Source: Bacilli bacterium (GTDB lineage: Bacteria; Bacillota_I; Bacilli_A; RFN20; CAG-826). Taken from it: 64,000 nt of DNA. The DNA lies in NCBI GenBank assembly GCA_016296775.1, contig JAEDIE010000001.1:18131-82130 (forward strand), in the 5' to 3' direction. The notes under the pieces were generated by a model. It was given only the letters and a program-made list of their open reading frames with translations, was not told where the DNA came from and did no database searches. The first letter of the stretch is position 1, and every line of letters starts with the position of its first letter. The position numbers were made by a program, and so were the translations under genes. Of this stretch, positions 3,408 to 47,369 are shown one piece after another.

Positions 3408-3441
3408 ATTTACTAAAATTTATATTTTGATATACTAAAAT

Positions 3442-3575
3442 TACTTCAGGGATAGGTGTAATTCCTTACTGGTGGTATAGCCCACGAGACGAAAGTCAGA
3501 ACTTGTTGAAATCAGTGCCAATAGTTAAAGTCTAGATGAAAGAAGATTTTTTATTTGCTCTTTGAAGTAGAAAGA
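3442..3575 (+). promoter_or_regulatory. FMN riboswitch (RFN element) with an expression platform that sequesters the RBS
   Basis: Conserved RFN blocks are visible: cagggataggtgtaattcc...ctggtggtatagcccacgagacgaaagtcaga...gtgccaatagttaaagtctagatgaaagaag. The downstream hairpin ctcttt/aaagag covers the SD-like sequence. The downstream gene is a riboflavin ECF S-component. Confidence 0.85.
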
Positions 3576-3581
3576 GAACTT

Positions 3582-4217
3582 ATGAAAAGAAAAAGAATTA
3601 TTAATTTAATCGTTCACGTTGCAATTTTTGGAGCATTGGCCATTATTTTATATTGTGTTCCGTATCTTCAATTTTCACTTCCATTTTGTCCATCTTTTTT
3701 AAAAATTCATTTCGATGAAATACCTATTCTATTAGCGGGTTATGCATTTGGACCATTAGAAGCCATATTAATTATCATATTAAAAGCTTTATTTAAGCTT
3801 ATTCAAGATATACCTGAAACAGGTGGAATTGGAGTATTAGCTGATGTCATTTATTCTTCAGCTTTTATACTTCCAGCTGTTTTTATCTATAAAAAACATA
3901 AAAATTTAAAAGGAGCAGTTATTTCTCTTTTAGTAGGAGTTTTATCTCAGTTAATTGTAAGTTGTGTAATAGGATTATATTTAATTTACCCATTATATGG
4001 TCTATATTTTTATCCTCAAGCTAGTAGTTATCAAGAAGCAATGGAAGTTGTAGGACAATTATTTACTCCGTTTGATAATTCTATTAAAAGTGCTACAGAT
4101 CCAAAAATTATGTATCAATTTTTGCTTCCTTTCAATTTAATTAAAGATGTAATTGTAGCTTCAGTGTGTTTTGTTTGTTATAAACCTTTAAAAATGTTAA
4201 TTGAAAGAAAAATGTAA
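3582..4217 (+). CDS. ribU: Riboflavin transporter RibU (ECF transporter S component). Start reassigned to the ATG after the riboswitch.
   Basis: Small protein of about 210 aa with about 6 TM segments, lying downstream of an FMN riboswitch. The ORF-track start at 3555 lies inside the riboswitch. Confidence 0.75.
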   Translation: MKRKRIINLIVHVAIFGALAIILYCVPYLQFSLPFCPSFLKIHFDEIPILLAGYAFGPLEAILIIILKALFKLIQDIPETGGIGVLADVIYSSAFILPAVFIYKKHKNLKGAVISLLVGVLSQLIVSCVIGLYLIYPLYGLYFYPQASSYQEAMEVVGQLFTPFDNSIKSATDPKIMYQFLLPFNLIKDVIVASVCFVCYKPLKMLIERKM

Positions 4218-7497: not shown

Positions 7498-8466
7498 ATG
7501 AAAGAAATTGTAATAACTAATGAATTTTCTAATCAAAGAGTAGATAAGTATGTTCGTAAATACTTAAATGAAGCTCCTTTAAGTTTTATATATAAACTTT
7601 TTAGAAAAAAAGATGTAAAAGTAAATAATCATTGGGTAAAAGAAAATTATATTCTTCAAACTAATGATGTTTTAAGAATTTTTGTAAGTGATGCTCAACT
7701 TGAAGAATTTAATAAGCCAAAAGAGGTAAAGAATATTTCTTTTAAAGATCTAAATATTATTTATGAAGATAATAATTTATTAATTGTTAATAAACCAAAA
7801 GGAATTCTTGTTCATGGAGATAGTAGTGAAAAAAGATTAACTTTAACTAATAAAGTTCAATCTTATATTATGTCAAAAAATGAACAAACTGACTTTTTGT
7901 GTTCTCCAATTCATCGTCTTGATAGAAACACTTCTGGCTTAGTAATTTTTGCTAAAAATTTTAAAACCAGCCAGTATTTCATGGGGTTATTGAAAGAAAA
8001 AGAAAAAATTGAAAAGTATTATTTATGTTTAGTAGTTGGAAAAACTACTAAATCTGGAACCGTTAATATTCCTCTATATAAAGATGATGAAAGAGGAATG
8101 GTTTTTAAAGGAAATATTAATAACGGTGCAAAAGAAGCCATAACAAAATATGAGCTTATTGCAAGCAATAATGATTTTAGTTTACTTAGTGTTCAAATTT
8201 TAACAGGAAGAACTCATCAAATTAGAGCTCATTTTAAAGAAATTAATCATCCTCTTGTAGGTGATGGAAAATATGGTGATTTTAAAATTAATAAGGGATT
8301 TAATAGTGATTTTAACTATGATTCACAATTTTTACATGCCTATAAAATTAAATTTAATAATCTAGAAGGAGATTATAAATATTTATCTAATAAAGAATTT
8401 GTTTCTCCATTAAATGATAAAGAAAAAGAGATATTGAATAAGCTCAATATCCCTATGAAATCCTAA
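7498..8466 (+). CDS. RluA-family pseudouridine synthase with an S4 domain (RluD/YlyB-like)
   Basis: Catalytic motif HRLDRNTSGLVIFAKN. N-terminal S4-like region. Confidence 0.8.
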   Translation: MKEIVITNEFSNQRVDKYVRKYLNEAPLSFIYKLFRKKDVKVNNHWVKENYILQTNDVLRIFVSDAQLEEFNKPKEVKNISFKDLNIIYEDNNLLIVNKPKGILVHGDSSEKRLTLTNKVQSYIMSKNEQTDFLCSPIHRLDRNTSGLVIFAKNFKTSQYFMGLLKEKEKIEKYYLCLVVGKTTKSGTVNIPLYKDDERGMVFKGNINNGAKEAITKYELIASNNDFSLLSVQILTGRTHQIRAHFKEINHPLVGDGKYGDFKINKGFNSDFNYDSQFLHAYKIKFNNLEGDYKYLSNKEFVSPLNDKEKEILNKLNIPMKS

Positions 8467-9459
8467 CTATTTATGGACATATAGTCCAACAGTTTTCTTA
8501 ACTTTTATTAATGTTTTATTAGCAATATAATTAGCTCTTCTTGCGCCTTCATTTAATATTTCATCAATCTTTCCTGAAGCTAATACTTCTTTATATTTGG
8601 CTTGGAAAGGAGTTAATACTTCAATAACTACATCAGCAACAGCTTTTTTAAATTCACCATATCTATGACAATCTTTAAAGATTTCTTCAGCTTCTTTAAT
8701 AGTAATTTCTTTTAGTGAAGCATATATTTGAAGTAAGTTTGAAATTCCTGGTTTATTTACTGGATCAAAATAGATATCACTTCCTAAATCAGTGACAGCG
8801 CTCATAATTTTCTTTCTAACAATATTTAAATCATCTTTTAAGAAAATATCACCTTTAGGATCACTTTTTGACATTTTTCTTGTTGGATCACTCAAAGACA
8901 TAATTCTAGCTCCAACTTTAGGAATAATAGGTTCAGGCATTTTAAATAATTCTTTATTGTATCTATTGTTAAATCTATGAACTAAATCTCTACATAATTC
9001 AACATGTTGTTTTTGATCTTCTCCAACTGGAACAACATCAGCATCGTAAAGTAAAATATCGCCACACATTAATACTGGATAAGCAAATAAACCTAAACCA
9101 ATAGCGTTTTCATTCATTTTTTTAGATTTATCTTTAAATTGAGTCATTCTAGAAAGTTCACCCATGTAAAGATAGTTTTGTAAAATTGTATTAATTTCAG
9201 AATGTGCACTTACATCACTTTGAAGGAAAATAGTTGTTTTTTCTGGGTCTAATCCAGCTGCAATATAAAATGCAACAATATCTTTTGTATTATTTCTAAG
9301 TTCAATTGGATCAATTGGTAAAGTTAAAGCATGTAAATCAGCTATAAAAATAAAATTTTCATAGTCATCTTGATATTTTTTAAAATTTTTTAATGCTCCA
9401 ATATAATTTCCTAATGTTAAATTTCCTGTTGGTTTAATACCACTTAGCGATCTTTTCAT
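8467..9459 (-). CDS. trpS: Tryptophan--tRNA ligase
   Basis: Class I aaRS motifs: KPTG...HLGNY-like N-terminus and KMSKS. 330 aa. Confidence 0.9.
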   Translation of the reverse strand: MKRSLSGIKPTGNLTLGNYIGALKNFKKYQDDYENFIFIADLHALTLPIDPIELRNNTKDIVAFYIAAGLDPEKTTIFLQSDVSAHSEINTILQNYLYMGELSRMTQFKDKSKKMNENAIGLGLFAYPVLMCGDILLYDADVVPVGEDQKQHVELCRDLVHRFNNRYNKELFKMPEPIIPKVGARIMSLSDPTRKMSKSDPKGDIFLKDDLNIVRKKIMSAVTDLGSDIYFDPVNKPGISNLLQIYASLKEITIKEAEEIFKDCHRYGEFKKAVADVVIEVLTPFQAKYKEVLASGKIDEILNEGARRANYIANKTLIKVKKTVGLYVHK

Positions 9460-9528
9460 AAACTTAGCCTCTTTATATTCTTTATAATTTTAACTTATTT
9501 ATTTTATAATTCAATTTATATTTATTTA

Positions 9529-9552
9529 CTTATTCAATATTTATTGAATAAG
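9529..9552. promoter_or_regulatory. 24-bp palindrome (11-bp arms) in the trpS/cysS divergent intergenic region; candidate operator
   Basis: cttattcaata tt tattgaataag is a perfect inverted repeat. It lies 28 nt upstream of the cysS start. Confidence 0.35.
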
Positions 9553-9579
9553 TGATATATTTAAAAAGAGGATTTTAGT

Positions 9580-10911
9580 ATGGATATTTATTTATATAAT
9601 TCATTGACAAATAAAATTGAAAAGTTTGTTCCACTTAAAGAAAACGAGTTAAAAATATATGTTTGTGGACCTACTGTTTATAATGATCCACATATTGGAA
9701 ACATGAGACCAGTAGTATTTTTTGATACATTAAATAGATTTTTTAGTTATGTTGGATATGATGTTAAATTTGTTTCAAATTATACCGATGTTGATGACAA
9801 GATTATTAATAAAGCTCTTCAAGAAGGAGTTGATGAAAAAGTTATTAGTGAAAGATATATTGCTAGATATAAAGATTGTTTAGATAAATTGAATGTGCGT
9901 AGAGCTTATCAAAATCCTCGTGTAACCGAATATATGGATAAAATTGTCTCATATATTGATGGATTAGTTGCAAAAAACAATGCTTATGTTGTAGATAATG
10001 AAGTTTTCTTTGATGTAAAAAGTGTCAAAGATTATGGATGTTTATCTAATACTAAATTAGACGAATTAAAAGCTGGAGCTAGAATTGAATCTAACGACAA
10101 AAAGAAATGTCCATTTGATTTTCTTTTATGGAAAAAAACTGATGTTGGCGTTAAATGGGATACTAAATGGTGTTTAGGTAGACCTGGCTGGCACACTGAA
10201 TGTTGTGTTATGATTGATTCAATTTTCAATGGAATGATTGATATTCATGGAGGAGGAAGTGATTTAAAATTCCCTCATCATGAAAACGAAATAGCTCAAG
10301 CTATGGCAATGCATAATAATCATATTGCAAATTACTGGTTACATAATGCAATGATGAATATTAATGGAGATAAGATGTCTAAATCTCTTGGTAATGTTAT
10401 TTTAGCTAAGGATGCAATTGAACTTTATGGAGCTGATACTTTAAGACTTTTCTTAATTAATGCTCCATATAGAAGTATTATTAATTTAACTGATAAAGCT
10501 ATTCAAGATACAAAATCTATCTTAAACAAGGTAGATAATTGCTATAAACAATTAAATTTAGTATTAAATATGAATGATAAATATGCATATGTTAAATCTA
10601 AATTCATGGATAAATTTTTAGAATATCTTTCAAATGATATGAATATTGCAAACGGTGTTACTTACTTATTAGATATTATTAAAGCTAGTAATCAAAGCTT
10701 AAGAGCAAAAGAATTAGACTATGATTTATTGAATGAATATTTCTCGACAATTAATGATATTTGTTCAATTTTAGGTCTTCATTATAGTGTTAAAAGATTT
10801 TCTAAAGAAGAAAAAACAATGTATAATGAGTATATAGAAGCAAAATCTAATAAAGATTTTGAAAAGAGCGATATATTAAGAAAACAATTAATTGAACTTA
10901 ATATTATTTAA
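9580..10911 (+). CDS. cysS: Cysteine--tRNA ligase
   Basis: HIGN and KMSKS motifs. Zn-binding cysteines. 443 aa. Confidence 0.9.
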   Translation: MDIYLYNSLTNKIEKFVPLKENELKIYVCGPTVYNDPHIGNMRPVVFFDTLNRFFSYVGYDVKFVSNYTDVDDKIINKALQEGVDEKVISERYIARYKDCLDKLNVRRAYQNPRVTEYMDKIVSYIDGLVAKNNAYVVDNEVFFDVKSVKDYGCLSNTKLDELKAGARIESNDKKKCPFDFLLWKKTDVGVKWDTKWCLGRPGWHTECCVMIDSIFNGMIDIHGGGSDLKFPHHENEIAQAMAMHNNHIANYWLHNAMMNINGDKMSKSLGNVILAKDAIELYGADTLRLFLINAPYRSIINLTDKAIQDTKSILNKVDNCYKQLNLVLNMNDKYAYVKSKFMDKFLEYLSNDMNIANGVTYLLDIIKASNQSLRAKELDYDLLNEYFSTINDICSILGLHYSVKRFSKEEKTMYNEYIEAKSNKDFEKSDILRKQLIELNII

Positions 10912-10926
10912 AGAAGGAGCTTGTTT

Positions 10927-11691
10927 ATGAATTTTTTAAATACTTTAACAGAAGCAACTGGCACAAGTGATATTTCATGGACGAATACCATCGACGGATT
11001 TATTGTTGAATGGTTTAATAAGTTAGGAATATTTGGTAATTTTGCTTTAATTGTCTTGTCTTTATTACTTGCCACTTTATTTGGCGGAATTATTGGATAT
11101 CAAAGAGAAATTAATGGACATGCTGCTGGATTTAGAACACATATTCTTATTGCTTTAGGTTCAAGTGTTATTATGATTCTTTCAATTTATGGAATATCTA
11201 TCGGAGGAACAAGAGATCCTATGAGATTTGCTGCAGCTGGTGTTACTGGAATTGGTTTCCTTGGTGCGGGAAGTATTATTCAAAACGGATTTAATATTAA
11301 AGGTTTAACTACAGCCGCTTCCATTTGGGTAACAATGGCAATTGGTATGGCTTGTGGAGCAGGTTATTTTGTTCTTGCTATTATTGCAACTGGAATTACA
11401 ATGCTTTGTTTAAGTTCATTTGAAAAATTTGAAAAGAGAGTTTCAAAGAAAAATTCAAATATTATGGTTGTTGTTCGTTCAGATACACCTGTATTATCAA
11501 CAATTATGGAAGTAAGTGAAAAGATGTCTATTACTGTTAAAGATCTTTCTTCTTCAATCGTCAATCAAAATGGTGTCTCTTATTTAAGAATCGTATTTAG
11601 AGTTGCTTGTTTAGACTCGAATAAAGTTCAACAATTTGTAAGTGAAATTGGCGATGAACTTAAACCTTTACAAATTAAAATTTTGCATTAA
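10927..11691 (+). CDS. MgtC/SapB-family membrane protein
   Basis: MgtC signature GGIIGYQRE...GFRTHILI. Start moved to the ATG 9 nt downstream of RBS aaggag. Confidence 0.75.
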   Translation: MNFLNTLTEATGTSDISWTNTIDGFIVEWFNKLGIFGNFALIVLSLLLATLFGGIIGYQREINGHAAGFRTHILIALGSSVIMILSIYGISIGGTRDPMRFAAAGVTGIGFLGAGSIIQNGFNIKGLTTAASIWVTMAIGMACGAGYFVLAIIATGITMLCLSSFEKFEKRVSKKNSNIMVVVRSDTPVLSTIMEVSEKMSITVKDLSSSIVNQNGVSYLRIVFRVACLDSNKVQQFVSEIGDELKPLQIKILH

Positions 11692-11792
11692 TTTTATATA
11701 TTTTTTCTAGATATATAAATATCTAGTAAAAATAATAAATAAACAGTTTTTAAAAATTTAACGTTAATTATTTAAATATTTTTGAGGTGAAT

Positions 11793-12500
11793 ATGGATAT
11801 TATATTTGGTACTAACACTATTATGAGTTCTTTAAAACTAGGGAGTGTTAAAAAACTATATTTGGTAAATGGCTATAATAATGAAAAAGTATTATCTTTA
11901 GCCAAGAAAAATAACGTAAATATAGTTTATGTTCAAAAAAGCGAACTTGATAAGATGACTCATGGTGGAGTGCACCAAAATGTAGTTGGAGTTGTTAAAA
12001 ACAAGGAATTACTTTCTTTTTCTAGTTTATTAAAAAGATTAGAAGGTATTAAGAATCCTCTTCTTGTAATGCTTGATGAATTAAGTGACCCTCATAACTT
12101 AGGCGCAATATTAAGAAGTGGTGATGCTTTTTCCATTAACGGAATTATTTTTAAAAGCAAAAATCAAGTCGCATTAACTGAAACTGTAGCTAAAGTTTCA
12201 ACAGGTGCGATTAATTTTATTGATTGTGTTCAAGTAGTAAATTTATCTCAAACAATAAAAGAATTGAAAAAACATGGTTTTTGGGTAATTGGTTTAGATG
12301 GAAATTCCTCATCTACATTAAAAGATATTCCAGGTGATGTTCCTCTTTGTGTTGTTGTTGGTAGTGAAGGATTTGGTATATCAAGGTTAGTAAAAGAAAA
12401 CTGCGATATGCTTGTAAAAATACCAATGACGGGTCATGTTGATTGTTTAAATGCTAGTGTAGCTTGTTCAATCGCTCTTTATCAAATTCGCAATCGCTAA
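11793..12500 (+). CDS. rlmB: 23S rRNA (guanosine-2'-O)-methyltransferase, SpoU/TrmH family (RlmB/YacO-like)
   Basis: SpoU motifs LDELSDPHNLGAILRS and VVGSEGFGIS. Conserved position after cysS. Confidence 0.8.
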   Translation: MDIIFGTNTIMSSLKLGSVKKLYLVNGYNNEKVLSLAKKNNVNIVYVQKSELDKMTHGGVHQNVVGVVKNKELLSFSSLLKRLEGIKNPLLVMLDELSDPHNLGAILRSGDAFSINGIIFKSKNQVALTETVAKVSTGAINFIDCVQVVNLSQTIKELKKHGFWVIGLDGNSSSTLKDIPGDVPLCVVVGSEGFGISRLVKENCDMLVKIPMTGHVDCLNASVACSIALYQIRNR

Positions 12501-12521
12501 TTTTTGATAAGGATCGATTAT

Positions 12522-13151
12522 ATGGATAATGATGAAATAGTACGTGTTTTTGTTGACTCAAAAAAAGGTGATATAAATTCTCAAAAGATAATTTTGTCTT
12601 TAATGAAAGAATATTGTCACCCATTAGTGTTAGTGTTTTATCCTAATGTTAAAAAGTTAGGAATAGATTATTCTGATTTAGAAGAATTAATATTGGAAGC
12701 GTTATTTAACATTTATAAAAATGTAGATAGTAAAGATATTTATGATTTTAAAAACCTTGCTAAATTTTATTATTTAAAAGCTGTTCAAAATGAGATCAGG
12801 TATCGAACAAGAAATAGTAGGAATGTATATTCAAACATGCTTTCTTTTGATAATCCTGAACAAAATGTTGAATTAATGTTAGCTAGAGAATCTAATTACA
12901 ATAGAGATGATTTACGTGATGTTGTTGGAGATGATGAAATATATAAAGACACAATTATAGAAAATAATGCTAAGTTAACTATTAAAGAAAGAGCAGTAAT
13001 AATTTTATTTTTAAATGACATAACTGTAAAAGAAATATCTCAAAAATATAAGTTAACTTATCAAACTGTATATAAACATATTCGTAATGCTTTAAAGAAA
13101 ATTAAAAGTTATATTGAAATTAAATATAAAGATGAATTTCATTTTCTTTAA
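12522..13151 (+). CDS. Sigma-70 family sigma factor, SigH-like by gene position and domain architecture
   Basis: C-terminal region-4 HTH TVKEISQKYKLTYQTVYKHIRNALKKIK. About 210 aa. The cysS-rlmB-sigma order mirrors Bacillus cysS-yacO-yacP-sigH. Start placed at the ATG after RBS aaggat. Confidence 0.55.
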   Translation: MDNDEIVRVFVDSKKGDINSQKIILSLMKEYCHPLVLVFYPNVKKLGIDYSDLEELILEALFNIYKNVDSKDIYDFKNLAKFYYLKAVQNEIRYRTRNSRNVYSNMLSFDNPEQNVELMLARESNYNRDDLRDVVGDDEIYKDTIIENNAKLTIKERAVIILFLNDITVKEISQKYKLTYQTVYKHIRNALKKIKSYIEIKYKDEFHFL

Positions 13152-13184
13152 ATTTAAGGTTTAAAAATTTAAATTTTTGGCGTC

Positions 13185-14174
13185 TTGTATTATATGAAGC
13201 ATTTATTTTTATCTTTATATTTATTGTTATCTATATTATTTAACCCTTTTAATGTTAAGAAGGTTAATGAATTTAATATTAGTTCTAATATTGAATTTGA
13301 TTGTTCAAGTATAGAGTTTGCTTTTGATTCAAGTTGTTATAAAGAATCAACATTTGAAGGAAAAATTAAAATTACTAGATTAAAAGAAAGTAAAGAAAAT
13401 TTTAATATAAATATTTCTATAATAAACGAAGGGTTTATTTATTCCTATTTAGATGATCCAACACTTAGTTATAGTCAATATATTAGCTTTTTAAATTATT
13501 ATTTCGATTTTAAAATTGATAAATCTTATTTAATTAATAACTTTAAAATTAGAATTGACTATAGTTATTTAGATAGTTATAAAACAATTTTTATTCCTTT
13601 TAGTAGTGACTATTTAAATATTGTGGATGAAGAAAAAGTAGATATCTATTATAAAGCTAAATTAGCAAATAACACTTTATACATTTATAAAAATACCATT
13701 GATTTAACGTATATTTCTTTATTTAAAGATCAAATTTATTATGATTTTCTAAAGTTTAAATTTTTAAAAATAAAGACTCAAGATGATACTTTGGTTTTAA
13801 ATAGTGTAGTACTTGGATTAGAAGATAATAGTTCAGTTTTTAAAGATGTTTCTACTTATTTATTTAGTTACGCTTTATTTCCTTTAAATTTTAAAAAAGA
13901 AGAAAATGAGTATTTTTGCTTCAATGAAAATCTCTTTTATTTAGATGAAACTTCTTTTTTATTAAAGAAAAATAGTAGTGAAAAAAATAATATTCTCACG
14001 AAAAACATTTATTTTCCTTCGAATAAATATGATGAATTTAAAGAATCATCAAGTTTTTTGATTTTAACATTTAATAATTATTTAACTATTAAATATAACT
14101 TTTTGTTAACTGTTGAAAACAATTTAAGAAGTAAGGAATTCTTTATTTTACAATCTAATGAGGCATTATTATGA
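13185..14174 (+). CDS. Hypothetical secreted protein (signal peptide), N/Y/F/K-rich, 329 aa
   Basis: Hydrophobic signal-like N-terminus MKHLFLSLYLLLSILF. Extremely AT-rich. The start could be TTG at 13185 or ATG at 13194. Confidence 0.5.
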   Translation: MYYMKHLFLSLYLLLSILFNPFNVKKVNEFNISSNIEFDCSSIEFAFDSSCYKESTFEGKIKITRLKESKENFNINISIINEGFIYSYLDDPTLSYSQYISFLNYYFDFKIDKSYLINNFKIRIDYSYLDSYKTIFIPFSSDYLNIVDEEKVDIYYKAKLANNTLYIYKNTIDLTYISLFKDQIYYDFLKFKFLKIKTQDDTLVLNSVVLGLEDNSSVFKDVSTYLFSYALFPLNFKKEENEYFCFNENLFYLDETSFLLKKNSSEKNNILTKNIYFPSNKYDEFKESSSFLILTFNNYLTIKYNFLLTVENNLRSKEFFILQSNEALL

Positions 14175-14563
14175 TTAAACTAATTTTAATTATTTCGTCT
14201 ATATTTACTTCATTATCGTTTTTAATAGATTGCTCATTAGTTAATTTAGAAAAGGAAAAAATAAGTAAAAAACTATATGATTTCCCATCTTATTTAGTGA
14301 ATGATTCAATTAGATATTACGAAGAAAAAGATGAGTTAAAACCTTATATTAAGCAAACAGTCTTTGAAGAGAATGTAACATCTTATTTTAATAGTTTATT
14401 GATTGATAAAGTAAAATATATTGAGTACAAATATTTTTACTATAATGATCAAAATATCGTTTTAGATACGAGTGAATATAAAACAAACGCTGAAATAACT
14501 ATAGATATTAATGTATCTACTTTTTATTCATTTAAATTTTATAAGGTTATAATGGTTTCTTAA
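14171..14563 (+). CDS. Hypothetical small exported/lipo-protein, 130 aa
   Basis: ATGA overlap with the upstream gene. Hydrophobic N-terminus ending in FLIDC. Confidence 0.5.
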   Translation: MIKLILIISSIFTSLSFLIDCSLVNLEKEKISKKLYDFPSYLVNDSIRYYEEKDELKPYIKQTVFEENVTSYFNSLLIDKVKYIEYKYFYYNDQNIVLDTSEYKTNAEITIDINVSTFYSFKFYKVIMVS

Positions 14564-14565
14564 TT

Positions 14566-15237
14566 ATGGTCAATTTATTCTTTTTAGCTATAACTTTATT
14601 TATTTATATTTTTCAGGTTGTAATATTAAAAAACTACATTATTTCCTTATCATTTCCTTTAATTTTAGGTATTTCTTTGATACTGATTAATGAGTTTATA
14701 AATTTTAGACTTAAAAATAATAAAAGTGAGAATTATAAGCTATATAACTATTTATTATTTGTTGCTAATAAGATAAAAAATAACGAGTTGAATTTGATAA
14801 GCTGTGAAGAAGAATTTAATAAAAGAGATATATTAAAAGAAAAAACAGATTTTAGAATTAACAATATAGATTACTTAAAATATTTAAATACAAAAATAAA
14901 TAATAAATATATAAATATGTTTATTAATGTTGTATCTAATAATAGTGAAATAGATATTTTGCTTTTTGATTTAGAAGCAGAGCTATTAAGGATAATTACT
15001 ATACATTCAAATTACTTTAAAAATTTAAAAGACGAAATTTTAAAGTCGTCTTTAGTTTTTATTCTTATTGAGTTCTTTTTCTTTATTTTTATTTTAATCT
15101 TAAACAATTTAAATTTAACAATATTTAATGAAAAATATATAGTTTTAGTAATTAATGTTCCTGTAATTTTGTTTATTTTATATTTATTTAGTTATTTGTT
15201 TAGAGGCAGCAAAAATGAAAAAGTTAAAATCAACTGA
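14566..15237 (+). CDS. Hypothetical membrane protein (TM segments at both ends), 223 aa
   Basis: Starts 2 nt after the upstream stop. N-terminal hydrophobic segments followed by a C-terminal LVFILIEFFFFIFILILNNL segment. Confidence 0.5.
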   Translation: MVNLFFLAITLFIYIFQVVILKNYIISLSFPLILGISLILINEFINFRLKNNKSENYKLYNYLLFVANKIKNNELNLISCEEEFNKRDILKEKTDFRINNIDYLKYLNTKINNKYINMFINVVSNNSEIDILLFDLEAELLRIITIHSNYFKNLKDEILKSSLVFILIEFFFFIFILILNNLNLTIFNEKYIVLVINVPVILFILYLFSYLFRGSKNEKVKIN

Positions 15238-15790
15238 TTACTTCTTAGTTTTTATATTTATTTTATTTGCTCTTTTATTTTCTTTAGCTTTATTTTTAAA
15301 AAAATACATTCTTATACTTATCGTAATAATGTACTTATTGCTTTTGTTATTAGGTATTAGACTTTTAGAAAAAAATAATGAAAAAGATCAAAATAACAAG
15401 GGAATAATAGGGAATTTTTATAATTATTATAGTCAATTAAGTAGTTTTTCTATCCAAGAAATTTCTAATTTAGAAATTAATAGAAGCGATACAGAGTTTC
15501 TATCTTTGCATCAAGAATTTATCTCATCTATTAAAGATTCCAATTCAATTTTTGGATATATTAAGTTTTTAAAATATTTAGATTGTAACGAAAAAGAAAT
15601 ACTTAAAAATATTTTCTTAATTAATCAAAAAGAGACTAAAAATAAAAAAGAGCTCATTTTAGAGAATAAAATTAAATTGTCTTTAAAAACTAAAGAAAAT
15701 AAAAAGCAATTAGGATTTACAATGGTTTTTATTGCACTTTTAGCAATACTTGTTATAACAATAGCTTTAGCAAAGGTGGTTATTGGATAA
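15215..15790 (+). CDS. Hypothetical membrane protein, 191 aa, with a C-terminal hydrophobic segment
   Basis: 23-nt overlap with the upstream gene. RBS gagg lies 9 nt upstream. C-terminus KKQLGFTMVFIALLAILVITIALAKVVIG. Confidence 0.5.
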   Translation: MKKLKSTDYFLVFIFILFALLFSLALFLKKYILILIVIMYLLLLLLGIRLLEKNNEKDQNNKGIIGNFYNYYSQLSSFSIQEISNLEINRSDTEFLSLHQEFISSIKDSNSIFGYIKFLKYLDCNEKEILKNIFLINQKETKNKKELILENKIKLSLKTKENKKQLGFTMVFIALLAILVITIALAKVVIG

Positions 15791-16128
15791 TGAAAAAAGA
15801 TTTTTTATGCATTATTTTTGTTTTTCTTTCTACTTATATAGGAACTTTTTATATAGATTTATATAGTTATTTTGTAAGCTATCAAAATTTATTAAGGATT
15901 GATAAAGAAGTTCAGTATTTATTTGAAAAACAAGGGTTTATTTCTAAACAATATAAAGAACAATTATATAGTGTAAATGTTGTTATATATTATGAAAAAG
16001 AAAGTTATTTTGATGGAGAAGTGGTGGAATACACCATTGAGCAGAATGCAAATTTAATTAATACATATTTATATAGCAATAACTTAAGTATTAGTGGATC
16101 TGCTGTAGTAGGAATTTTTATTGCTTAA
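15790..16128 (+). CDS. Hypothetical small membrane-anchored protein, 112 aa
   Basis: TAATG overlap with the upstream gene. RBS aggtgg. N-terminal TM segment. Confidence 0.5.
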   Translation: MKKDFLCIIFVFLSTYIGTFYIDLYSYFVSYQNLLRIDKEVQYLFEKQGFISKQYKEQLYSVNVVIYYEKESYFDGEVVEYTIEQNANLINTYLYSNNLSISGSAVVGIFIA

Positions 16129-16180
16129 TTTTTACTCAGGTTTATTATATAATTTAATTAGTTAATTAATGGAGAATACT

Positions 16181-16408
16181 ATGGCTAAAAGAGAAGAAAT
16201 TGAAAATTTAATTAGAACTAAATTAAATATTGAAAACTTAGACTATAATGCAACATTAACAACCTATGGTTTAGATTCACTTGATGTTGTTGAATTTGTT
16301 CTTGAAATTGAAGATACCTACGGTGTCACGTTCGAAAGTGAAGAAACAAAAGACTTAAAAACAGTCGGAAATTTGGTTGATTTAATCGAAAAGAAAATTT
16401 CTAAATAA
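16181..16408 (+). CDS. acpP: Acyl carrier protein (orphan copy)
   Basis: Phosphopantetheine attachment motif GLDSLDVVEFV. 76 aa. RBS ggag. Confidence 0.8.
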   Translation: MAKREEIENLIRTKLNIENLDYNATLTTYGLDSLDVVEFVLEIEDTYGVTFESEETKDLKTVGNLVDLIEKKISK

Positions 16409-16493
16409 AATATTACAAACTTCGTTAATTTTTTTAAAAAAAATGTTGAAATTAATTAGTGTTGTTTGTTATACTTATTAAGCGTTGATTAGT

Positions 16494-16568
16494 GCTGACT
16501 TAGCTCAATGGTAGAGCAATCGGCTGTTAACCGATCGGTTGTAGGTTCGAGTCCTATAGTCAGCGCCA
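16494..16568 (+). tRNA. tRNA-Asn (GTT)
   Basis: Acceptor stem gctgact/agtcagc. Anticodon loop ctGTTaa. T-loop ggttcgagtcc. CCA is encoded. Confidence 0.85.
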
Positions 16569-16579
16569 TCACTCAAATT

Positions 16580-16656
16580 GGCCTATTGGAGAAGTGGCTT
16601 AACTCACATGCCTTTCACGCATGCATTCATGGGTTCGAATCCCGTATAGGTCACCA
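16580..16656 (+). tRNA. tRNA-Glu (TTC)
   Basis: Closely resembles Bacillus tRNA-Glu: ggcctat...anticodon stem catgc/gcatg with loop cTTTCac...gggttcgaatccc...CCA. Confidence 0.8.
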
Positions 16657-16668
16657 TTTTGAAAGCAT

Positions 16669-16700
16669 AGGTTTGATACAGTAGTGTCAAACCTTTTTTG
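16669..16700 (+). terminator. Rho-independent terminator after the tRNA pair
   Basis: aggtttga..tcaaacct hairpin followed by TTTTTT. A second hairpin agaccaga..tctggtct at about 16741-16787 is also followed by a T-run. Confidence 0.6.
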
Positions 16701-16799
16701 TTTGGCAGAAAGGGTGATTTTCCTATCCGCCAGTTTTTTAAAGACCAGAAGTAGTGAATTATGTAACTATTATCTGGTCTTTTCTTTATTTTTGTATTT

Positions 16800-16849
16800 A
16801 ACTTTTTAACGATTATCTAACTTTTTAACGTTTTGACAACTTTTTAACG
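16800..16849 (+). repeat. Three direct copies of AACTTTTTAACG with an exact 19-bp period (16800, 16819, 16838), immediately upstream of an extended -10 promoter
   Basis: Read directly from the sequence. The spacers are 7 bp. TGgTATATG lies at 16867-16875. Confidence 0.7.
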
Positions 16850-16965
16850 ATTTATTTATTGATTGTTGGTATATGAATAATATGGTCAAAAGTATAGATT
16901 TTTTACATATTATGTGTTATAACAATTTCATAAAAACACAAAACATATTAGGAGGTGCAATATTA

Positions 16966-17892
16966 ATGAAAAAAATTATTAATTTATTTTCTATTTTTTT
17001 ATTAATTATTATTTCTTTTATGCTTTCTGGTTGCGATATTTTAAATGGTTTATTAGGTGACAATGGTTCAAGTAATAGAGAAGAAAACTTTAATAACGAA
17101 TTAGAATCATCTACAGGCAAATGGCTATTAGAAAATGATGAAGACACTTATTTTGTATTTGATGGAACTAAAGGAGTTATGACATACAGCTATGTTGAAA
17201 ATGGAGTTGACAAATATAATGGTACTTATAGAGTTGTTTCTAGAGAAATAGGAAAAGATGTTGCAACACCACTAACTTTTGTTTTCACAAGAAATGATAA
17301 AGCAAAAGAAGATTGGATTGGATGTTATGTCGAAGATTTTAATAGTGATTTTACTCAGTTTACAATTATGAGTGAAGAAGAAGATCTTGGAATGATTGAT
17401 GGTTCTATTCATACTTATATTTATCGAATTAGTGAATTACCTTATAAAATGGGAAGTTATATTTTAGAAGGTAATGATTACAAAGTAGAATCTGATAATT
17501 ATAAATACTCTAATAAATTCTGCATTCCAAGTGGTACTTATACGTTAGAAACTGGAGAAAGATTTACTTTCTTATATACTAAACCTGTAACGAATGAATT
17601 GTTCCAATATGTAAATGGTGAAATAATTATTGAAGGAACAATTACGATAGCGGAAGATAAAAAGACAATTTATCTTTACATTGAGAATGATCCTTATAAT
17701 AAAGTAACTGATGCTGATAAAGAGCGTTACGATACGACATTTGGTATTTATTATCCACCTGATTTCTATCTACGAGGTGATTTTAGCAATCCAAATAAAA
17801 TTGTAATTAATGATTTATATCATCACACAGAAAGTCCAAGTGAAATTGAAGATTCAACTTGGTTGTTTGGAACATATAATAAAATTAATTAA
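16966..17892 (+). CDS. Lipoprotein, hypothetical (308 aa)
   Basis: Lipobox FMLSGC after a hydrophobic h-region. RBS aggagg lies 9 nt upstream of the ATG at 16966. The ORF-track N-terminal extension lacks an RBS. Confidence 0.65.
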   Translation: MKKIINLFSIFLLIIISFMLSGCDILNGLLGDNGSSNREENFNNELESSTGKWLLENDEDTYFVFDGTKGVMTYSYVENGVDKYNGTYRVVSREIGKDVATPLTFVFTRNDKAKEDWIGCYVEDFNSDFTQFTIMSEEEDLGMIDGSIHTYIYRISELPYKMGSYILEGNDYKVESDNYKYSNKFCIPSGTYTLETGERFTFLYTKPVTNELFQYVNGEIIIEGTITIAEDKKTIYLYIENDPYNKVTDADKERYDTTFGIYYPPDFYLRGDFSNPNKIVINDLYHHTESPSEIEDSTWLFGTYNKIN

Positions 17893-17908
17893 TTGGCAAT
17901 AGGAATAA

Positions 17909-17997
17909 GGGTACAAAAACTACCTAAAAGGGTACGGACTTTTAATACAAGGGTACGGAAAAAATAAACCTTATAACGATTACTCATTAAAGGGTAC
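17909..17997 (+). repeat. Iteron-like array: 4 copies of (A)AGGGTAC(G/A)GA phased at 21, 21 and 41 bp, flanked by the 8-bp inverted repeats ACTACCTA / TAGGTAGT
   Basis: The copies sit at 17909, 17930, 17951 and 17992. The inverted-repeat arms lie at about 17918-17925 and 18013-18020. Confidence 0.6.
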
Positions 17998-18042
17998 GGA
18001 ATTGTATTAAAATAGGTAGTGTTTGCCAAAAAGGAGATTCTA

Positions 18043-18074
18043 GGATAATACGTTGTATTATCCTTTTATTTTAT
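18043..18074 (+). terminator. Hairpin plus T-run (9-bp perfect stem ggataatac/gtattatcc)
   Basis: Read from the sequence. Followed by ttttatttta. Confidence 0.5.
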
Positions 18075-18178
18075 GGATTCTCCGTTTTTTTCCGGGGTAT
18101 TTCCGGGTATTTGAAAAAATACCTCTTTTTTATTAGGAAAATTGAAAATACCCTGTGAAAAATAATCGTTTTTTGTAG

Positions 18179-19122
18179 TGAACACATTTCTTTGGACCAA
18201 AATAATGAAGGGAAGATTTTATATGAAGTTCACAAAAGAGTTCAGGTTAAAATGGTAAAAAATACTTGAACGGAGAAATGATTCTAAAGTTTGGAGATGG
18301 ATCAAAACACAATTGCTCTAAAACTGTAAGGGCATGGGTTAAGCTTTATGGAATATCATGGAGAAGAAGGCTTGAGCCATCGCTATAACAATAGGACAAT
18401 CAAAGAAAAAGAATATGCTGTTAAGAGATTTCTTGTTGGAGAAAGCAAAACTGATGTTGCCGCTTCTTTAGGAATAAGTAAATCCATTTTATCTGAATGA
18501 ATTAACATTATTTTAAAAAAGGAATTTCTGGTATAGAATTAAATCACTTATTGGGAAGGCCACCAAAAATGTCTAAAAACACACTAGGAAGAAAAACTCG
18601 CGCTGAATTAGAAAAAGAATATAAATTTTTAAAGACAGAGGGCGAATATTTAAAAAAATTAGATGCCTTAGTTCAAAAATGAAACGTGCTACAATCGAAG
18701 AAAAAGTAAAGATTGTTAATGTATTAAGGCACAAGTATAAATTAAGCACCTTATTGGAAATTTCAAAACTATCTAAATCAACATATTTTTTCACTCTTAA
18801 CAAAGTAAACTTAGATGATAAAAACAAAGAAATTATTAATGAGATTATTGATATTTATTACTTTAATAAATCAAGATATGGTTATAGAAGAATAACTCAA
18901 GAACTTAAAAATAGATGTTTTATAGTTAACTATAAAAAGTTAAACGTATTATATCACCATTAGGTATTTTTGGTATTAAAACAAGCAATTATTGATTATA
19001 TCAATTACTACAACAACGATAGAATTTCTTGCAAATTAAAAGGACTGAGTCTGAATAACTTTAGACATCAGTCCATTCAACCCCTTATAATTTAATTGAA
19101 CTTGTCCAATAAAGTGGGTTCA
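18179..19122 (+). mobile_element. Degraded IS3-family (IS150-like) insertion sequence with recognisable terminal inverted repeats and an internal deletion
   Basis: The left inverted repeat (IRL) is TGAACACATTTCTTTGGACCAAAAT. The reverse complement of the right end (IRR) is TGAACCCACTTTATTGGACAAGTTCA, which matches about 20 of 26 positions. The internal frames encode OrfA-like (HTH, LGRPPKMSKNT...EYLKK) and OrfB N- and C-terminal fragments broken by stops. The integrase core is missing. Confidence 0.6.
18297..18963 (+). pseudogene. IS3-family transposase orfAB remnant (multiple stops and frameshifts)
   Basis: Conceptual translation gives IS3 OrfA-like segments and the OrfB start RYGYRRITQELKNRCFIV, interrupted by in-frame TGA/TAA stops. 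The C-terminal ...NNDRISCKLKGLS fragment lies near 19000-19060. Confidence 0.55.
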
Positions 19123-25007: not shown

Positions 25008-25180
25008 GGGAAATCATATAGTTTTTAAAAAAATTATTATGTTTATCTTTATATAAATTATTAAATATAATATTACTTTTATTTTAGATATAATTAAGAT
25101 AGATAATAAAAATCTATCTTTTTTTATTTTTTAAAATATTTTTAAGAATTTTTTCGTTATATTTAGTGAAGAGGGTAAAA

Positions 25181-25681
25181 ATGAATAGTGATGTAGCTAT
25201 TATGAAAGGTTTAAAAAACAAGTCAGAAGCTTCATTTAGAAAGCTTTATGACAAGTATTTTCGTTTAGTCTATTATCAAGCATATTTAATCCTTCATTCA
25301 AAAGAAGATTCAGAAGATGTTAGTCAAGATGTATTTATTAAGTTCTATAATAAAGTTGATGAACTTCCTAATGATTTAAACATTAAAAGTTACATCGCAT
25401 TGATGGCTAAAAATACAGCTATCGATCAATATCGAAAGAATCAAAAAGAAAGCGTTACTTTAGATCCTGAAGAGATAGGAAATGAAGATGATTCTTCAAC
25501 ATTACTTGATTCATTTAATGGAATATTAGAAAAAGATGAATCGATTATTCTAACATTAAGGTTAAATTTCAATTATTCGTTTAAAGAAATAGCCTTAGAT
25601 TTGAATCAAACTATCAATGTTGTTCAAGCAAAGTACTATAAAGGGATTAAAAAGATTAAAGAATTTTATTTCAAGAGGTAA
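25181..25681 (+). CDS. ECF-type (group 4) sigma-70 family sigma factor
   Basis: Region 2 VSQDVFIKFY and a region-4 HTH. About 165 aa. RBS gagggt lies upstream of the ATG at 25181. Confidence 0.75.
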   Translation: MNSDVAIMKGLKNKSEASFRKLYDKYFRLVYYQAYLILHSKEDSEDVSQDVFIKFYNKVDELPNDLNIKSYIALMAKNTAIDQYRKNQKESVTLDPEEIGNEDDSSTLLDSFNGILEKDESIILTLRLNFNYSFKEIALDLNQTINVVQAKYYKGIKKIKEFYFKR

Positions 25682-25684
25682 AGT

Positions 25685-27055
25685 ATGAATAAGAAGAAAT
25701 ACGTAGAAGAAATAAATAAAGAAATTGATAAAAATAAAAATTATCAATCTATTAGTTCAAAATTAAATTTTAAAGAAGAAAATAAAAAAGGAGTATTTTA
25801 TATGAAAAACAAAAAATTAATTGCTGGTCTTTGTGGTGGATGCGCTGCTGCTGTTGTAGTTGCTGGTGTTGGTATTGGAGTTGTTTATGGTTTAGATTCA
25901 AAGAAAGAAGGAACACCTACAAGCTTAGTTAAAATGAGTGTTAATCCAGAATTAACAATGGTTTTAGATGAAAATAATACAGTTTTATCTATTAGTGGAG
26001 ATAATGACGAAGGTAAAATGATTATTGCTGATGAAGAAATCGTTGGTAAAGATGTTGATGAAGCTATTGAATATATTATTAAACTTGAAAATGAGACTGG
26101 TTATTTAGTTAGTGGAGAATTTGTTAGTGAACCAAACAAAATCACCATTCAAATTAGTGTAAATGATGAAAATATTAAAAACACTTTAACAAACGTAATC
26201 AATGAAGCAATTACTACAACTTGTGATAAGTTACATATCGAAGAAACAATTTCATGGGCTAAAGATTTTACACGTCAAAATTTAGTTGATTTAGCTTTAA
26301 AAGTTGATCCAACATTGACAGAAGAAGATGCTGCTAAATTAACAAATGAACAGTTGCTTGATATTATTAAACTTTATCAAATTGAAACAGCTTCAATTTA
26401 TACTTGTGAAATTGAAGAATTATATAATCAAGTTAAAGGTTATGAAATTCAATTTGCTGAAACTGAATTTGTTAAAGATGCAGTTAGTTCATTAGGTGGA
26501 CTTTATGATTTAATTGCTAACACTTTACAATCATCAATCATCACACTACAAAATAAAATTGATAGTATTAACAACTTTAGATATGCTACATTTGTTGATC
26601 CAACAAGCGATTATCAAGTTCAAATGGATGAATTAAAAGCTAAAAAGGAAGAAGTTATTGCTGTAAGAAATGAAGTTGCTAATACTGAGGAAAGTGCTTT
26701 AAGAGACCAAAAATTATTAATTCTTGATGCCAAAATTGCAGCTTATGAATCTTGTTACCAAGCTTTAGAATCAATTAAAGCTTCTTGTTTAGCAAATCTT
26801 GATAGCTATGCCGCTTCTCTTCAATCAGCAATTGATTCAATTAATGATATTATCGTTTCTTTACCTACTAAAGATGAAGTTGAAGCTACTTTACAATCAA
26901 AAGCTTCAGAGTTAGATGCAAAATTAAATGAAGTAAAGACAAGTTTCTTCAACGAATTTGAAAAAGAATATAAAGATGATATCGTAGAAGCCAAAAATAA
27001 AGCTATTGAATATAAAGAATCACTTAAACAAAAAGTAAGTGAAGCTAGAATGTAA
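25685..27055 (+). CDS. Single-pass membrane protein with a large coiled-coil ectodomain; putative cognate anti-sigma factor
   Basis: TM segment LIAGLCGGCAAAVVVAGVGIGVVYGL. Located downstream of the ECF sigma factor. An alternative start exists at 25802 with a strong aaggag RBS. Confidence 0.4.
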   Translation: MNKKKYVEEINKEIDKNKNYQSISSKLNFKEENKKGVFYMKNKKLIAGLCGGCAAAVVVAGVGIGVVYGLDSKKEGTPTSLVKMSVNPELTMVLDENNTVLSISGDNDEGKMIIADEEIVGKDVDEAIEYIIKLENETGYLVSGEFVSEPNKITIQISVNDENIKNTLTNVINEAITTTCDKLHIEETISWAKDFTRQNLVDLALKVDPTLTEEDAAKLTNEQLLDIIKLYQIETASIYTCEIEELYNQVKGYEIQFAETEFVKDAVSSLGGLYDLIANTLQSSIITLQNKIDSINNFRYATFVDPTSDYQVQMDELKAKKEEVIAVRNEVANTEESALRDQKLLILDAKIAAYESCYQALESIKASCLANLDSYAASLQSAIDSINDIIVSLPTKDEVEATLQSKASELDAKLNEVKTSFFNEFEKEYKDDIVEAKNKAIEYKESLKQKVSEARM

Positions 27056-46741: not shown

Positions 46742-47369
46742 AGTGTGTTTTAAAGAAATAAGAAATAAGTCATTCCATCATTTATTTAATAATGCTTCGA
46801 TATGTGATAAATGTTTGCAAAAATATCATCCTAAGTTTAAACAGTTTATTTTTGAAGGAATTAATGCTCTTTCAATTTATGAATATAAAGATACAATTAA
46901 AGAAAAATTATTTGCCTTTAAGGGTTGTTATGATTATGAACTTTATTCTACATTTTTAAACATATATGAGAACGAATTAAGAATAAAATATATAGGATTT
47001 TATATAGTTTTTGTTCCATCAACTAAAGAAAGTAATGAAGCAAGAGGCTTTAATCATGTTAAAGAAATGTTCAAATTTTTAAAACTTCCAGAACTTGATT
47101 TATTAAGGAAAGAAGGTAATGATAAACAAGCAAAAAGTACTTATCAAGAAAGAAAAAAGGTAGGAAAACATATTGTTTTAGCATCCAAAATCGATCTTAG
47201 AAATAAAAAAATTCTCTTAGTAGATGATGTTATAACTACAGGAGCCACATTAAAAGCATCAATAAACTTAATAAAAAGTTTAAATCCTTTGAAAATAGAG
47301 ATTTTAACTATGGCAAAAAGAGAATTTGATTACTCTAAGGGTGGTAAAAATATCGATGTAATTAAATAA
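46653..47369 (+). CDS. comFC: Competence protein ComFC (phosphoribosyltransferase domain). The start is uncertain and may be internal.
   Basis: N-terminal Cys pairs and the PRTase motif ILLVDDVITTGATL. Confidence 0.75.
   Translation: MEMFIMLQKEKLNIWKKLLSSLSTQTQNCKVCFKEIRNKSFHHLFNNASICDKCLQKYHPKFKQFIFEGINALSIYEYKDTIKEKLFAFKGCYDYELYSTFLNIYENELRIKYIGFYIVFVPSTKESNEARGFNHVKEMFKFLKLPELDLLRKEGNDKQAKSTYQERKKVGKHIVLASKIDLRNKKILLVDDVITTGATLKASINLIKSLNPLKIEILTMAKREFDYSKGGKNIDVIK

Follow-up and report, generated by a model that had tools for sequence, protein, structure and literature searches.

Five coupled genes behind a divergent sigma factor gene in a low-G+C Bacillota genome, a probable remnant of a Tad-like filament-assembly cluster

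In several Bacillota the Com pseudopilus (ComGA-ComGG, ComC) is under the control of SigH- or ComX-type sigma factors. In the Tad systems (type IVc) the extension ATPase is accompanied by a tiny Flp pilin, by the TadE/F pseudopilins and by two platform proteins of one domain each, the outcome of a gene fission (PMC10191384, PMC6668835). Here we describe a cluster of five genes, O1 to O5, that lies behind a divergent sigma-70-family gene in 64,000 nucleotides (nt) of DNA from a Mollicutes-like Bacillota metagenome-assembled genome (MAG; GenBank assembly GCA_016296775.1, contig JAEDIE010000001.1, positions 18,131 to 82,130). This whole stretch is called the window below. The five genes are homologous to part of a larger chromosomal cluster, the full cluster, that also encodes a secretion ATPase and a very small pilin-like protein. 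The reading that we consider probable, if far from certain, is that O1-O5 are a reduced and fast-evolving descendant of this Tad-like (type IVc, or VirB11-TadA type) filament-assembly cluster, now either vestigial or left with a minor role in the envelope.

The original prediction, made from the letters of the window, had proposed a fast-evolving surface module with a surface-assembly function, conceivably one serving competence under the control of the adjacent sigma factor. The first part pointed in the right direction, and descent from a type-IV-filament-like (Tad/VirB11-type) cluster can now be added to it. The data do not support a functioning pilus or competence apparatus governed by this sigma factor, as the window's version of the cluster is without the ATPase and the pilin gene and has lost most of the conserved motifs. 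Five orphan genes can be assigned to a system of type-IV-filament-like character, of which the ATPase is the sole part to match a curated family.

Homology of the five genes to a larger chromosomal cluster

The five proteins had been said to match no family that can be named, and scans against Pfam and NCBIfam indeed gave no match for any of them. A word-indexed homology search of 5.8e9 proteins found three relatives of O1, and O4 matched itself alone. Searches of PDB sequence profiles with the alignments of O1, O3 and O4, shallow as well as deep, returned only noise, and within the window BLASTP detects no similarity between O3 and O4 or between O2 and O5. An exhaustive search of 1.84e9 representative proteins with a profile of O1 found seven proteins, among them P0011 (E=1.7e-7).

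The locus that encodes P0011 (L091/L092) has an O1-like gene of 353 amino acids (aa), an O2-like gene of 135 aa and a T2SSE ATPase of 342 aa, followed by membrane proteins of 243 and 223 aa, proteins of 115 and 62 aa, the acyl carrier protein (ACP) gene acp and the same tRNAs as in the window. When the window proteins are compared with those of L091 by hhalign, profile against sequence, the two sets pair one to one (O1 P=7e-12, O2 P=4e-18, O3 P=1e-3, O4 P=8e-5, O5 P=1e-9), and every off-diagonal pair has a P of at least 0.03. About 45 metagenomic loci (L097-L146) share the order O1-O2-ATPase-O3-O4-O5-P62-acp, in which P62 stands for the small protein in front of acp. These loci were found by a metagenome scan with an alignment of the ATPase and then tabulated with hidden Markov models; their ORF (open reading frame) starts are longest-ORF calls. 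The full clusters usually come after a divergently oriented gmk gene and are far from any sigma gene, and acp comes after the cluster both in L083-L094 and in some 27 of the full-cluster loci. In many uncultured Bacillota of low G+C the full system is conserved at one fixed place in the chromosome, and its parts are an ATPase, two split platform-like proteins, a pseudopilin-like protein, a pilin-like protein of 45-70 aa and two accessory proteins.

In L091 the region 3' of the full cluster encodes an exported protein of 208 aa and then, at 7876-10770, a secreted protein of 964 aa that contains a Hint-like module (E=0.0012). The latter was not seen beside the other full clusters that we inspected.

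The reduced version of the cluster is no peculiarity of one genome. In the comparison of synteny that had been proposed with the original prediction, the order sigma-O1-O2-O3-O4-O5-acp recurs in several independent lineages (L001, L083, L084, L085-L090 and L093/L094), at least four of them other than that of the window. Across them the proteins measure 212-215 aa (sigma), 331-335 aa (O1), 130-131 aa (O2), 220-238 aa (O3), 188-193 aa (O4) and 108-113 aa (O5), and the overlaps of stop and start codons are kept throughout. In the window itself, the coordinates and junctions first given for the five ORFs (ATGA, a 2-nt gap, a 23-nt overlap and TAATG) proved exact on re-checking. Between L083 and L084 the products of O1-O5 are 52-64% identical, with ratios of nonsynonymous to synonymous substitution rates (dN/dS) of 0.27-0.38, against dN/dS of 0.03-0.05 for cysS, mgtC and rlmB and an identity of about 95% for housekeeping proteins.

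On this comparative evidence O1-O5 are real, coding and constrained, but fast-evolving genes. Their low sequence complexity and the lack of family matches might suggest a spurious run of ORFs in AT-rich non-coding DNA, an explanation that is almost certainly wrong. About one codon in ten is a stop at roughly 19% G+C, yet frames of 112-329 codons are intact, so these are not chance ORFs. The spurious-run explanation is already refuted by the comparison of more than five lineages, in which the frames are orthologous and agree in length, order and coupling, by a dN/dS below 1 and by significant profile matches to full-cluster genes.

Components of the full cluster and of a related plasmid module

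The full-cluster ATPase matches PF00437 (T2SSE) with 66.9 bits, where the cut-off is 24.9, and its best relatives in the PDB are VirB11-like proteins, Archaeoglobus GspE, FlaI and CpaF. With the NCBIfam models it scores 114 bits for VirB11, 82 bits for TadA and 59 bits for ComGA. Judged by these scores, it belongs to the VirB11/TadA (T2SSE) family.

The full-cluster O3 and O4 profiles match each other with P=9e-7, equal to the match of Rhizobium TadB to TadC, and in both proteins N- and C-terminal membrane segments flank a helical domain of about 110 aa. For the O3 of L131 a sub-threshold match to Pfam T2SSF (E=6.7e-5; 23.3 bits, cut-off 25.2) spans positions 8-123 of the 125 in the profile. 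This is the one hit among 29 full-cluster O3 proteins; three of 22 O4 proteins give fainter hits, at E of at least 0.15. Plasmid homologues, described below, match T2SSF at 0.0089 and Spore_III_AB at 4e-5, the latter a family with a GspF-like fold.

The N-terminus of P62 (45-70 aa) reads MSE[IL]KGQ[LI]LG without exception in 24 distinct sequences; a hydrophobic helix comes next, and the tail varies. The layout is that of a putative class III (prepilin) signal peptide, with predicted cleavage after Gly6, and the matches to known families are faint (archaeal Pilin_N E=0.12, UpsA E=0.075). The full-cluster O5 starts with M-x-S-K-[IL]-G and then a hydrophobic stretch, a second prepilin-like leader. 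The full-cluster O1 ends in a conserved two-cysteine motif, G-[DN]-C-x-x-S-x-Y-C, which the O1 of the window's clade lacks. Directly 5' of O1 the full clusters have a conserved, unannotated gene of 105-135 aa that we call Reg (motif IINNDFF..NY.FWW..YS.STYYRLKR). Reg has no match in Pfam and no similarity to the window sigma factor in hhalign, and may be the cluster's own regulator.

How do these components compare with described machines? The full cluster resembles the Tad/Flp pilus in several respects. Its secretion ATPase falls in the VirB11/TadA/FlaI branch, and in place of one two-domain protein it has two platform-like proteins of a single domain each, which are adjacent and paralogous. 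Its pilin-like protein is very small, with a short leader that ends in Gly, and O5 is a small pseudopilin-like protein with an N-terminal anchor. The full cluster differs from the Tad/Flp pilus in other ways. TadV, TadZ and CpaB were not found nearby, with TadZ and CpaB judged by gene size and order only; the non-ATPase parts fall under the Pfam and NCBIfam thresholds, with no match to TadE or Flp; the leader is MSE[IL]KG/Q and the Flp G/XXXXEY motif is missing; and no Tad component is recognised as the counterpart of O1 or of O2. The window version, in addition, has neither the ATPase nor the pilin gene. With the Com pseudopilus the full cluster shares the outline of a minimal type IV filament of monoderms, with an ATPase, a platform and small pilins as its parts. 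However, its ATPase scores lower with ComGA than with the VirB11 and TadA models, its platform is split in two proteins, and the window has no KGFTLxE prepilin. It also differs from conjugative type IV secretion systems: the full-cluster ORFs between gmk and acp are mostly below about 410 aa, and none has, by length, the 600-800 aa of VirB4 or VirD4. No relaxase-like gene was noted in the annotated flanks of full clusters; these negatives come from reading lengths and annotations, without searches by VirB4, VirD4 or relaxase profiles. Taken as a whole, the full cluster looks like a previously undescribed Tad-like assembly system, apparently a minimal one, and we infer that it assembles a filament. 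Our search of the literature found nothing on the chromosomal cluster.

A related module is found on plasmids. In PLSDB the best annotated relatives of the ATPase are 'CpaF/VirB11 family' proteins of conjugative plasmids from Listeria, Bacillus (including pXO1- and pXO2-type plasmids), Clostridium, Paraclostridium, Paenibacillus and Enterococcus. Further matches, here for the ATPase by itself, lie on pXO1, pXO2/pAW63-type, pLS20-like and Enterococcus faecium plasmids. We compared the neighbourhoods in full for a Listeria pLIS21-type plasmid and a Paraclostridium bifermentans plasmid. Both of these, and about 25 metagenomic mobile-element-like loci, carry a collinear module that consists of an N-anchored protein of about 130 aa (a), the ATPase, two membrane proteins of about 275 and 250 aa (b and c), an N-anchored protein of about 120 aa (d) and hydrophobic ORFs of 47-55 aa. 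In profile-profile comparisons O2 matches a (a129, P=5e-5), O3 matches b (P=6.5e-11), O4 matches c (P=2.3e-10) and O5 matches d (d120/d118, P=3e-6 to 4e-5). The small ORFs at the end of the module, e.g. MLDQNTDRGSWAMI..LVVAG.., could be Flp-like pilins. The pXO1 locus has a different order (CpaB, AAA ATPase, CpaF/VirB11, a 310-aa protein).

The modules of the two compared plasmids are thus collinear, gene for gene, with the full cluster. They differ from it in being surrounded by conjugation genes (VirD4-like) and thioester adhesin genes, in their longer ATPases (400-470 aa) and in the absence of O1 and acp; the cluster of the window, for its part, is chromosomal, vertically inherited and without an ATPase. 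RefSeq names the ATPase of the module and annotates the remaining genes as 'hypothetical proteins'. A VirB11 homologue has been noted in pAW63/pXO2 (PMC9673590, PMC1196294), and beyond this homologue we found no literature on the rest of the module. The homology reported here offers the unannotated Listeria and Paraclostridium module a testable function, that of a mating or adhesion filament.

Gene loss and relaxed constraint in the clade of the window

In the window the slot of the ATPase is closed, with just 2 nt between O2 and O3, and the slot of P62 is a gap of about 40-50 nt between O5 and acp. Profiles of the ATPase, P62 and Reg found nothing in 232 kilobases (kb) of reduced lineages, which include the whole window (best E=0.35). 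As the ATPase sits between the O2-like and O3-like genes in plasmid, mobile-element and chromosomal clusters alike, its absence here is the derived state. A neighbour-joining tree of ACP places the reduced lineages in a single clade nested among full-cluster lineages.

Constraint has been relaxed on the genes that remain. At comparable dS (0.6-1.4), the dN/dS of O2-O5 is 0.27-0.38 in the reduced pair and 0.04-0.15 in full clusters (O2 0.11-0.15, O3 0.10-0.12, O4 0.08-0.15, O5 0.04-0.07), which means that purifying selection is 2-6 times weaker. Motif retention, scored on those columns of the alignments in which conservation across the full clusters reaches 75% or more, gives a similar picture. 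The reduced lineages keep 6-28% of these columns in O3 and O4 and 33-48% in O5, whereas every member of the full clusters keeps at least 62%. The window O3 retains 24% and the window O4 6%, and the K-x-G leader of O5 is lost in the window's clade.

The G-F-T segment at the end of O4, which the original prediction compared with a prepilin, was considered as a candidate and rejected. A regular-expression scan of all six frames of the window for KGFTLxE-type prepilins has this segment as its sole match. It is C-terminal, it lacks Glu5 and, as KKQLGFTMVF, it has no counterpart in the orthologues; we regard it as a chance resemblance.

A history of the following kind probably accounts for the locus. 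The ancestral order, which survives in the full-cluster loci, starts with a small regulator-like gene and runs on through O1, O2, the ATPase, O3, O4, O5 and P62 to acp and the pair of tRNAs. The common ancestor of the clade to which the window belongs would have undergone a rearrangement that put this block behind the sigma gene in the sigH position, displacing rpmG-secE-nusG, and the ATPase, P62 and the small upstream gene were lost from the block. The five genes left over probably encode a vestigial membrane and surface complex, either in slow decay or with a minor, ATPase-independent role in the envelope. Because the motor and the pilin are missing, the five proteins are unable to polymerise a filament alone. 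Relaxed selection and the loss of motifs argue against continued coupling to an ATPase; a role at the membrane or surface, whether residual or new, is suggested by the long-term intactness of the genes and by their dN/dS of less than 1.

Several points weigh against this interpretation. All five ORFs are intact, with their lengths and coupling kept through saturating synonymous divergence, which favours a retained function. The search for the lost genes covered 64 kb of this genome and about 170 kb of relatives, and an ATPase, a pilin or a prepilin peptidase may be encoded elsewhere in the genome. The ACP tree is built on just 75 residues and should be treated cautiously, and the dN/dS values were obtained by the Nei-Gojobori method at high dS and divergence. 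On the side of the full cluster, the assignment of O3 and O4 to T2SSF stays under threshold, and hhalign detects no signal between the full-cluster O3, O4 and O5 profiles and single Rhizobium TadB, TadC and TadE sequences. The pilin reading of P62 and O5 is based on an N-terminal pattern, without a significant family match. In addition, the prepilin peptidase motif G-x-G-D-[VI]-K occurs in none of the ORFs of the window or of any fetched locus.

Could O1-O5 still be part of a working pilus, competence or surface machine, with an ATPase, pilin and peptidase (e.g. of comG type) encoded elsewhere and the adjacent sigma factor in control? The ORFs are intact and coupled and have a dN/dS below 1 in all sampled lineages, O1 follows the sigma gene closely, with terminators absent before position 16669, comFA/comFC-like genes are present in the window, and the data cover just 64 kb of this genome. 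We nevertheless judge such a machine rather unlikely. Among the positions conserved wherever the ATPase is present, 72-94% are no longer kept by the platform-like proteins, the O5 leader is gone and selection is relaxed as described above, and ATPase and P62 homologues are absent from the 232 kb of these lineages. The metagenome scan, which was pattern-limited, likewise returned no ATPase match from the two JGI samples that hold reduced clusters, and the sole prepilin-like motif of the window is the non-conserved segment at the C-terminus of O4.

A second possibility, which we put forward tentatively and with more doubt than belief, is that the five proteins form an exapted, motor-independent envelope complex, captured into the transcription unit of sigH and given a role linked to stationary phase or stress. 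They would then derive from the platform, pseudopilin and accessory proteins of an undescribed class of type IV filament with pilins of 45-70 aa and an MSE[IL]KGQ leader, common to the chromosomes of Mollicutes-like Bacillota and to Gram-positive conjugative plasmids. Whether vestigial or exapted, the clade of the window is a natural experiment. The motor and the filament subunit have been lost and the rest has long been kept under weakened selection, which invites the question of which components of a type IV filament apparatus can act independently of the motor.

Gene order, base composition and neighbouring features

The SigH (Spo0H) locus of Bacillus has the order cysS-(mrnC)-rlmB-(yacP)-sigH-rpmG-secE-nusG. 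The window keeps the upstream cysS-(mgtC)-rlmB-sigma synteny (Table 1), but in its clade O1-O5, acp and the tRNAs take the place of the ribosomal/secE/nusG block behind the sigma gene. Within the 64-kb window we found none of secE, nusG, rplK and rplA. A relative, L005, has the Bacillus-type order cysS, mgtC, rlmB, sigma, rpmG, secE, nusG, rplK, rplA, rplJ, rplL, rpoB, which bears out the earlier remark that the gene order after the sigma gene in the window is unusual. The L005 sigma factor is homologous to that of the window (23% identity, E=2e-9) and sits after rlmB and before rpmG-secE-nusG, so the window sigma factor is the positional counterpart of SigH.

The description 'SigH-like' therefore holds by position, but not by sequence. 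Sigma70_r4_2 is the sole model above threshold (28.9 bits, cut-off 25.7). The scores are far under the cut-offs for the SigH equivalog NF006146 (16.7 bits, cut-off 414) and below that of the sigma70-ECF (extracytoplasmic function) superfamily model (32.7 bits, cut-off 42.9), and region 2 is recognisable by eye although no model calls it. In the reduced lineages the sigma factor evolves fast, at 47% identity against about 79% for the flanking proteins; its dN/dS between L083 and L084 is 0.09.

RlmB of the window is 76-80% identical to that of L002-L004, about 53% identical to that of L005-L011 and about 40-43% identical to Acholeplasma and Haloplasmataceae entries. The DNA of the organism has about 27% G+C and uses genetic code 11; TGA functions as a stop codon, and the organism is therefore no code-4 mycoplasma. 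The nearest MAGs (L002-L004 and L006-L011), with RlmB proteins 50-80% identical and the same synteny, bear incompatible NCBI names that include Staphylococcaceae, Lachnospiraceae, Bacteroidaceae, Slackia and Parabacteroides, and these labels are unreliable.

The spacing between the sigma gene and O1 is 30-42 nt, and a scan of positions 11600-16668 found no terminator-like hairpin. From this tight spacing and the absence of terminators before 16669 we infer that O1-O5 are probably cotranscribed with the sigma gene and on to acp and the tRNAs. Matches to promoter consensus sequences in the window are no more frequent than in shuffled sequence.

This arrangement raises the question of whether the five proteins have been co-opted to work with the sigma factor in sensing or regulation, in the manner of an unconventional module for anti-sigma control or envelope signalling. 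They are strictly adjacent to the sigma gene in every reduced lineage, and the sigma factor is itself fast-evolving there. We consider the idea improbable all the same, as no Pfam or NCBIfam anti-sigma domain is present in O1-O5, O1 has no cytoplasmic N-terminal domain, and in full clusters the same genes lie distant from any sigma gene, after gmk, together with the ATPase and the pilin-like gene. Moreover, a genuine pair is encoded elsewhere in the window (25166-27055): another alternative sigma factor (Sigma70_r2) and, behind it, an anti-sigma protein of RsgI-like type, in a conventional arrangement unlike that of sigma and O1.

Table 1. Features of the sigma-O1-O5 region of the window, and related features of other loci
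Feature	Position	Strand	Remarks
cysS	9580-10911	+	then mgtC, 10921-11691 (+)
rlmB, SpoU-type 23S rRNA methyltransferase	11787-12500	+	Pfam SpoU_methylase and SpoU_sub_bind; upstream anchor of the cysS-mgtC-rlmB-sigma synteny
divergent sigma-70-family gene	12522-13151; alternative TTG start at 12504	+	Sigma70_r4_2; positional SigH counterpart
O1, secreted beta-rich protein with tandem beta-sandwich domains	13194 (ATG) or 13185 (TTG) to 14174	+	
O2, 130 aa, N-terminally anchored	14171-14563	+	orthologue of the gene preceding the ATPase in full clusters
O3, degenerate platform-like membrane protein	14566-15237	+	2+2 hydrophobic segments flanking a helical cytoplasmic domain
O4, second degenerate platform-like membrane protein, O3 paralogue	15215-15790	+	
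O5, 112 aa, N-terminally anchored, derived from a pseudopilin-like component	15790-16128	+	
acp, acyl carrier protein gene	16181-16408	+	PP-binding 1.6e-12; constant 3' neighbour of reduced and full clusters
tRNA-Asn(GTT) and tRNA-Glu(TTC)	16494-16656	+	ARAGORN and Rfam; conserved block ends here
terminator-like hairpin	16669-16694	+	first one 3' of rlmB
Reg	L109:6234-6587, L121:6245-6598, L127:6209-6580 and about 18 other full-cluster loci		
O1 orthologues with the C-terminal two-Cys motif	L109:6588-7616, L111:6582-7607, L131:3554-4642		
six-gene CpaF/VirB11 module	L095:5431-9420, L096:5398-9611, L149-L176		plasmids and mobile-element-like loci

From its ATG start O1 has 326 aa, and the database copy, P0001, starts there. 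The signal peptide and membrane topologies claimed for the five products agree with hydropathy: O1 begins with a short signal-peptide-like hydrophobic stretch, O2 and O5 each have a single N-terminal hydrophobic segment, O3 has two N-terminal and two C-terminal segments, and O4 has two N-terminal segments and one C-terminal segment. A single-sequence AlphaFold2 model of the window O3 is all helical, at a pLDDT of 49 that is too poor for a test of the fold. A spurious ORF that spans the two tRNAs of the window recurs after acp in L091.

The AT-richness that had been claimed for the cluster was borne out by measurement. The G+C fraction is 0.16-0.21 over positions 13000-16100 and 0.25-0.34 in the flanks, and F, Y, I, N and K make up 0.43-0.54 of the residues of the O1-O5 products, compared with 0.26-0.41 in the products of neighbouring genes. 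However, G+C at the third codon position (GC3) is 0.125-0.18 in O1-O5 and 0.08-0.19 in the flanking core genes, and the deficit is confined to the first and second positions (GC1 and GC2). The anomaly is therefore one of protein composition, in a genome with an AT bias and under weak constraint on the residues, and no mark of a mutational history that differs from that of the flanks.

Horizontal acquisition, as also suggested by the original prediction, is not indicated by these data, at least not as a recent event, because the GC3 of O1-O5 matches that of the flanks. A recently acquired foreign surface module or a fragment of a mobile element would fit the low G+C, the occurrence of homologous modules on conjugative plasmids and the variable DNA with insertion sequence debris downstream of the tRNAs. 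It is very improbable nonetheless, since the chromosomal block from O1 to acp and the tRNAs is vertically inherited at a fixed location and tracks host divergence in many lineages, and since identity to the plasmid proteins is seen only by profile-profile comparison.

The DNA just 3' of acp, tRNA-Asn and tRNA-Glu varies among relatives and resembles an integration hotspot. In the window (16657-19100) it holds a 339-aa lipoprotein-like ORF and broken transposase-like ORFs (18266-19095), and in L083 (13686-20228) a DpnII-type restriction-modification system and a serine recombinase follow the tRNAs. In L093 (6874-8058) a transposase is inserted between O5 and acp.

The comFA and comFC genes that the original prediction named are present, by domain content only, as a comFA-like gene (DEAD/Helicase_C/ResIII) and a comFC-like gene (phosphoribosyltransferase) at 45578-47369. 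The two overlap by 89 nt and lie upstream of an opposite-strand epimerase/dehydratase gene, secA and prfB. At the other end of the window, a flavin mononucleotide (FMN) riboswitch (84.8 bits, positions 3438-3551) lies immediately 5' of the S component of an energy-coupling factor (ECF) transporter (3555-4217), which is probably a riboflavin transporter.

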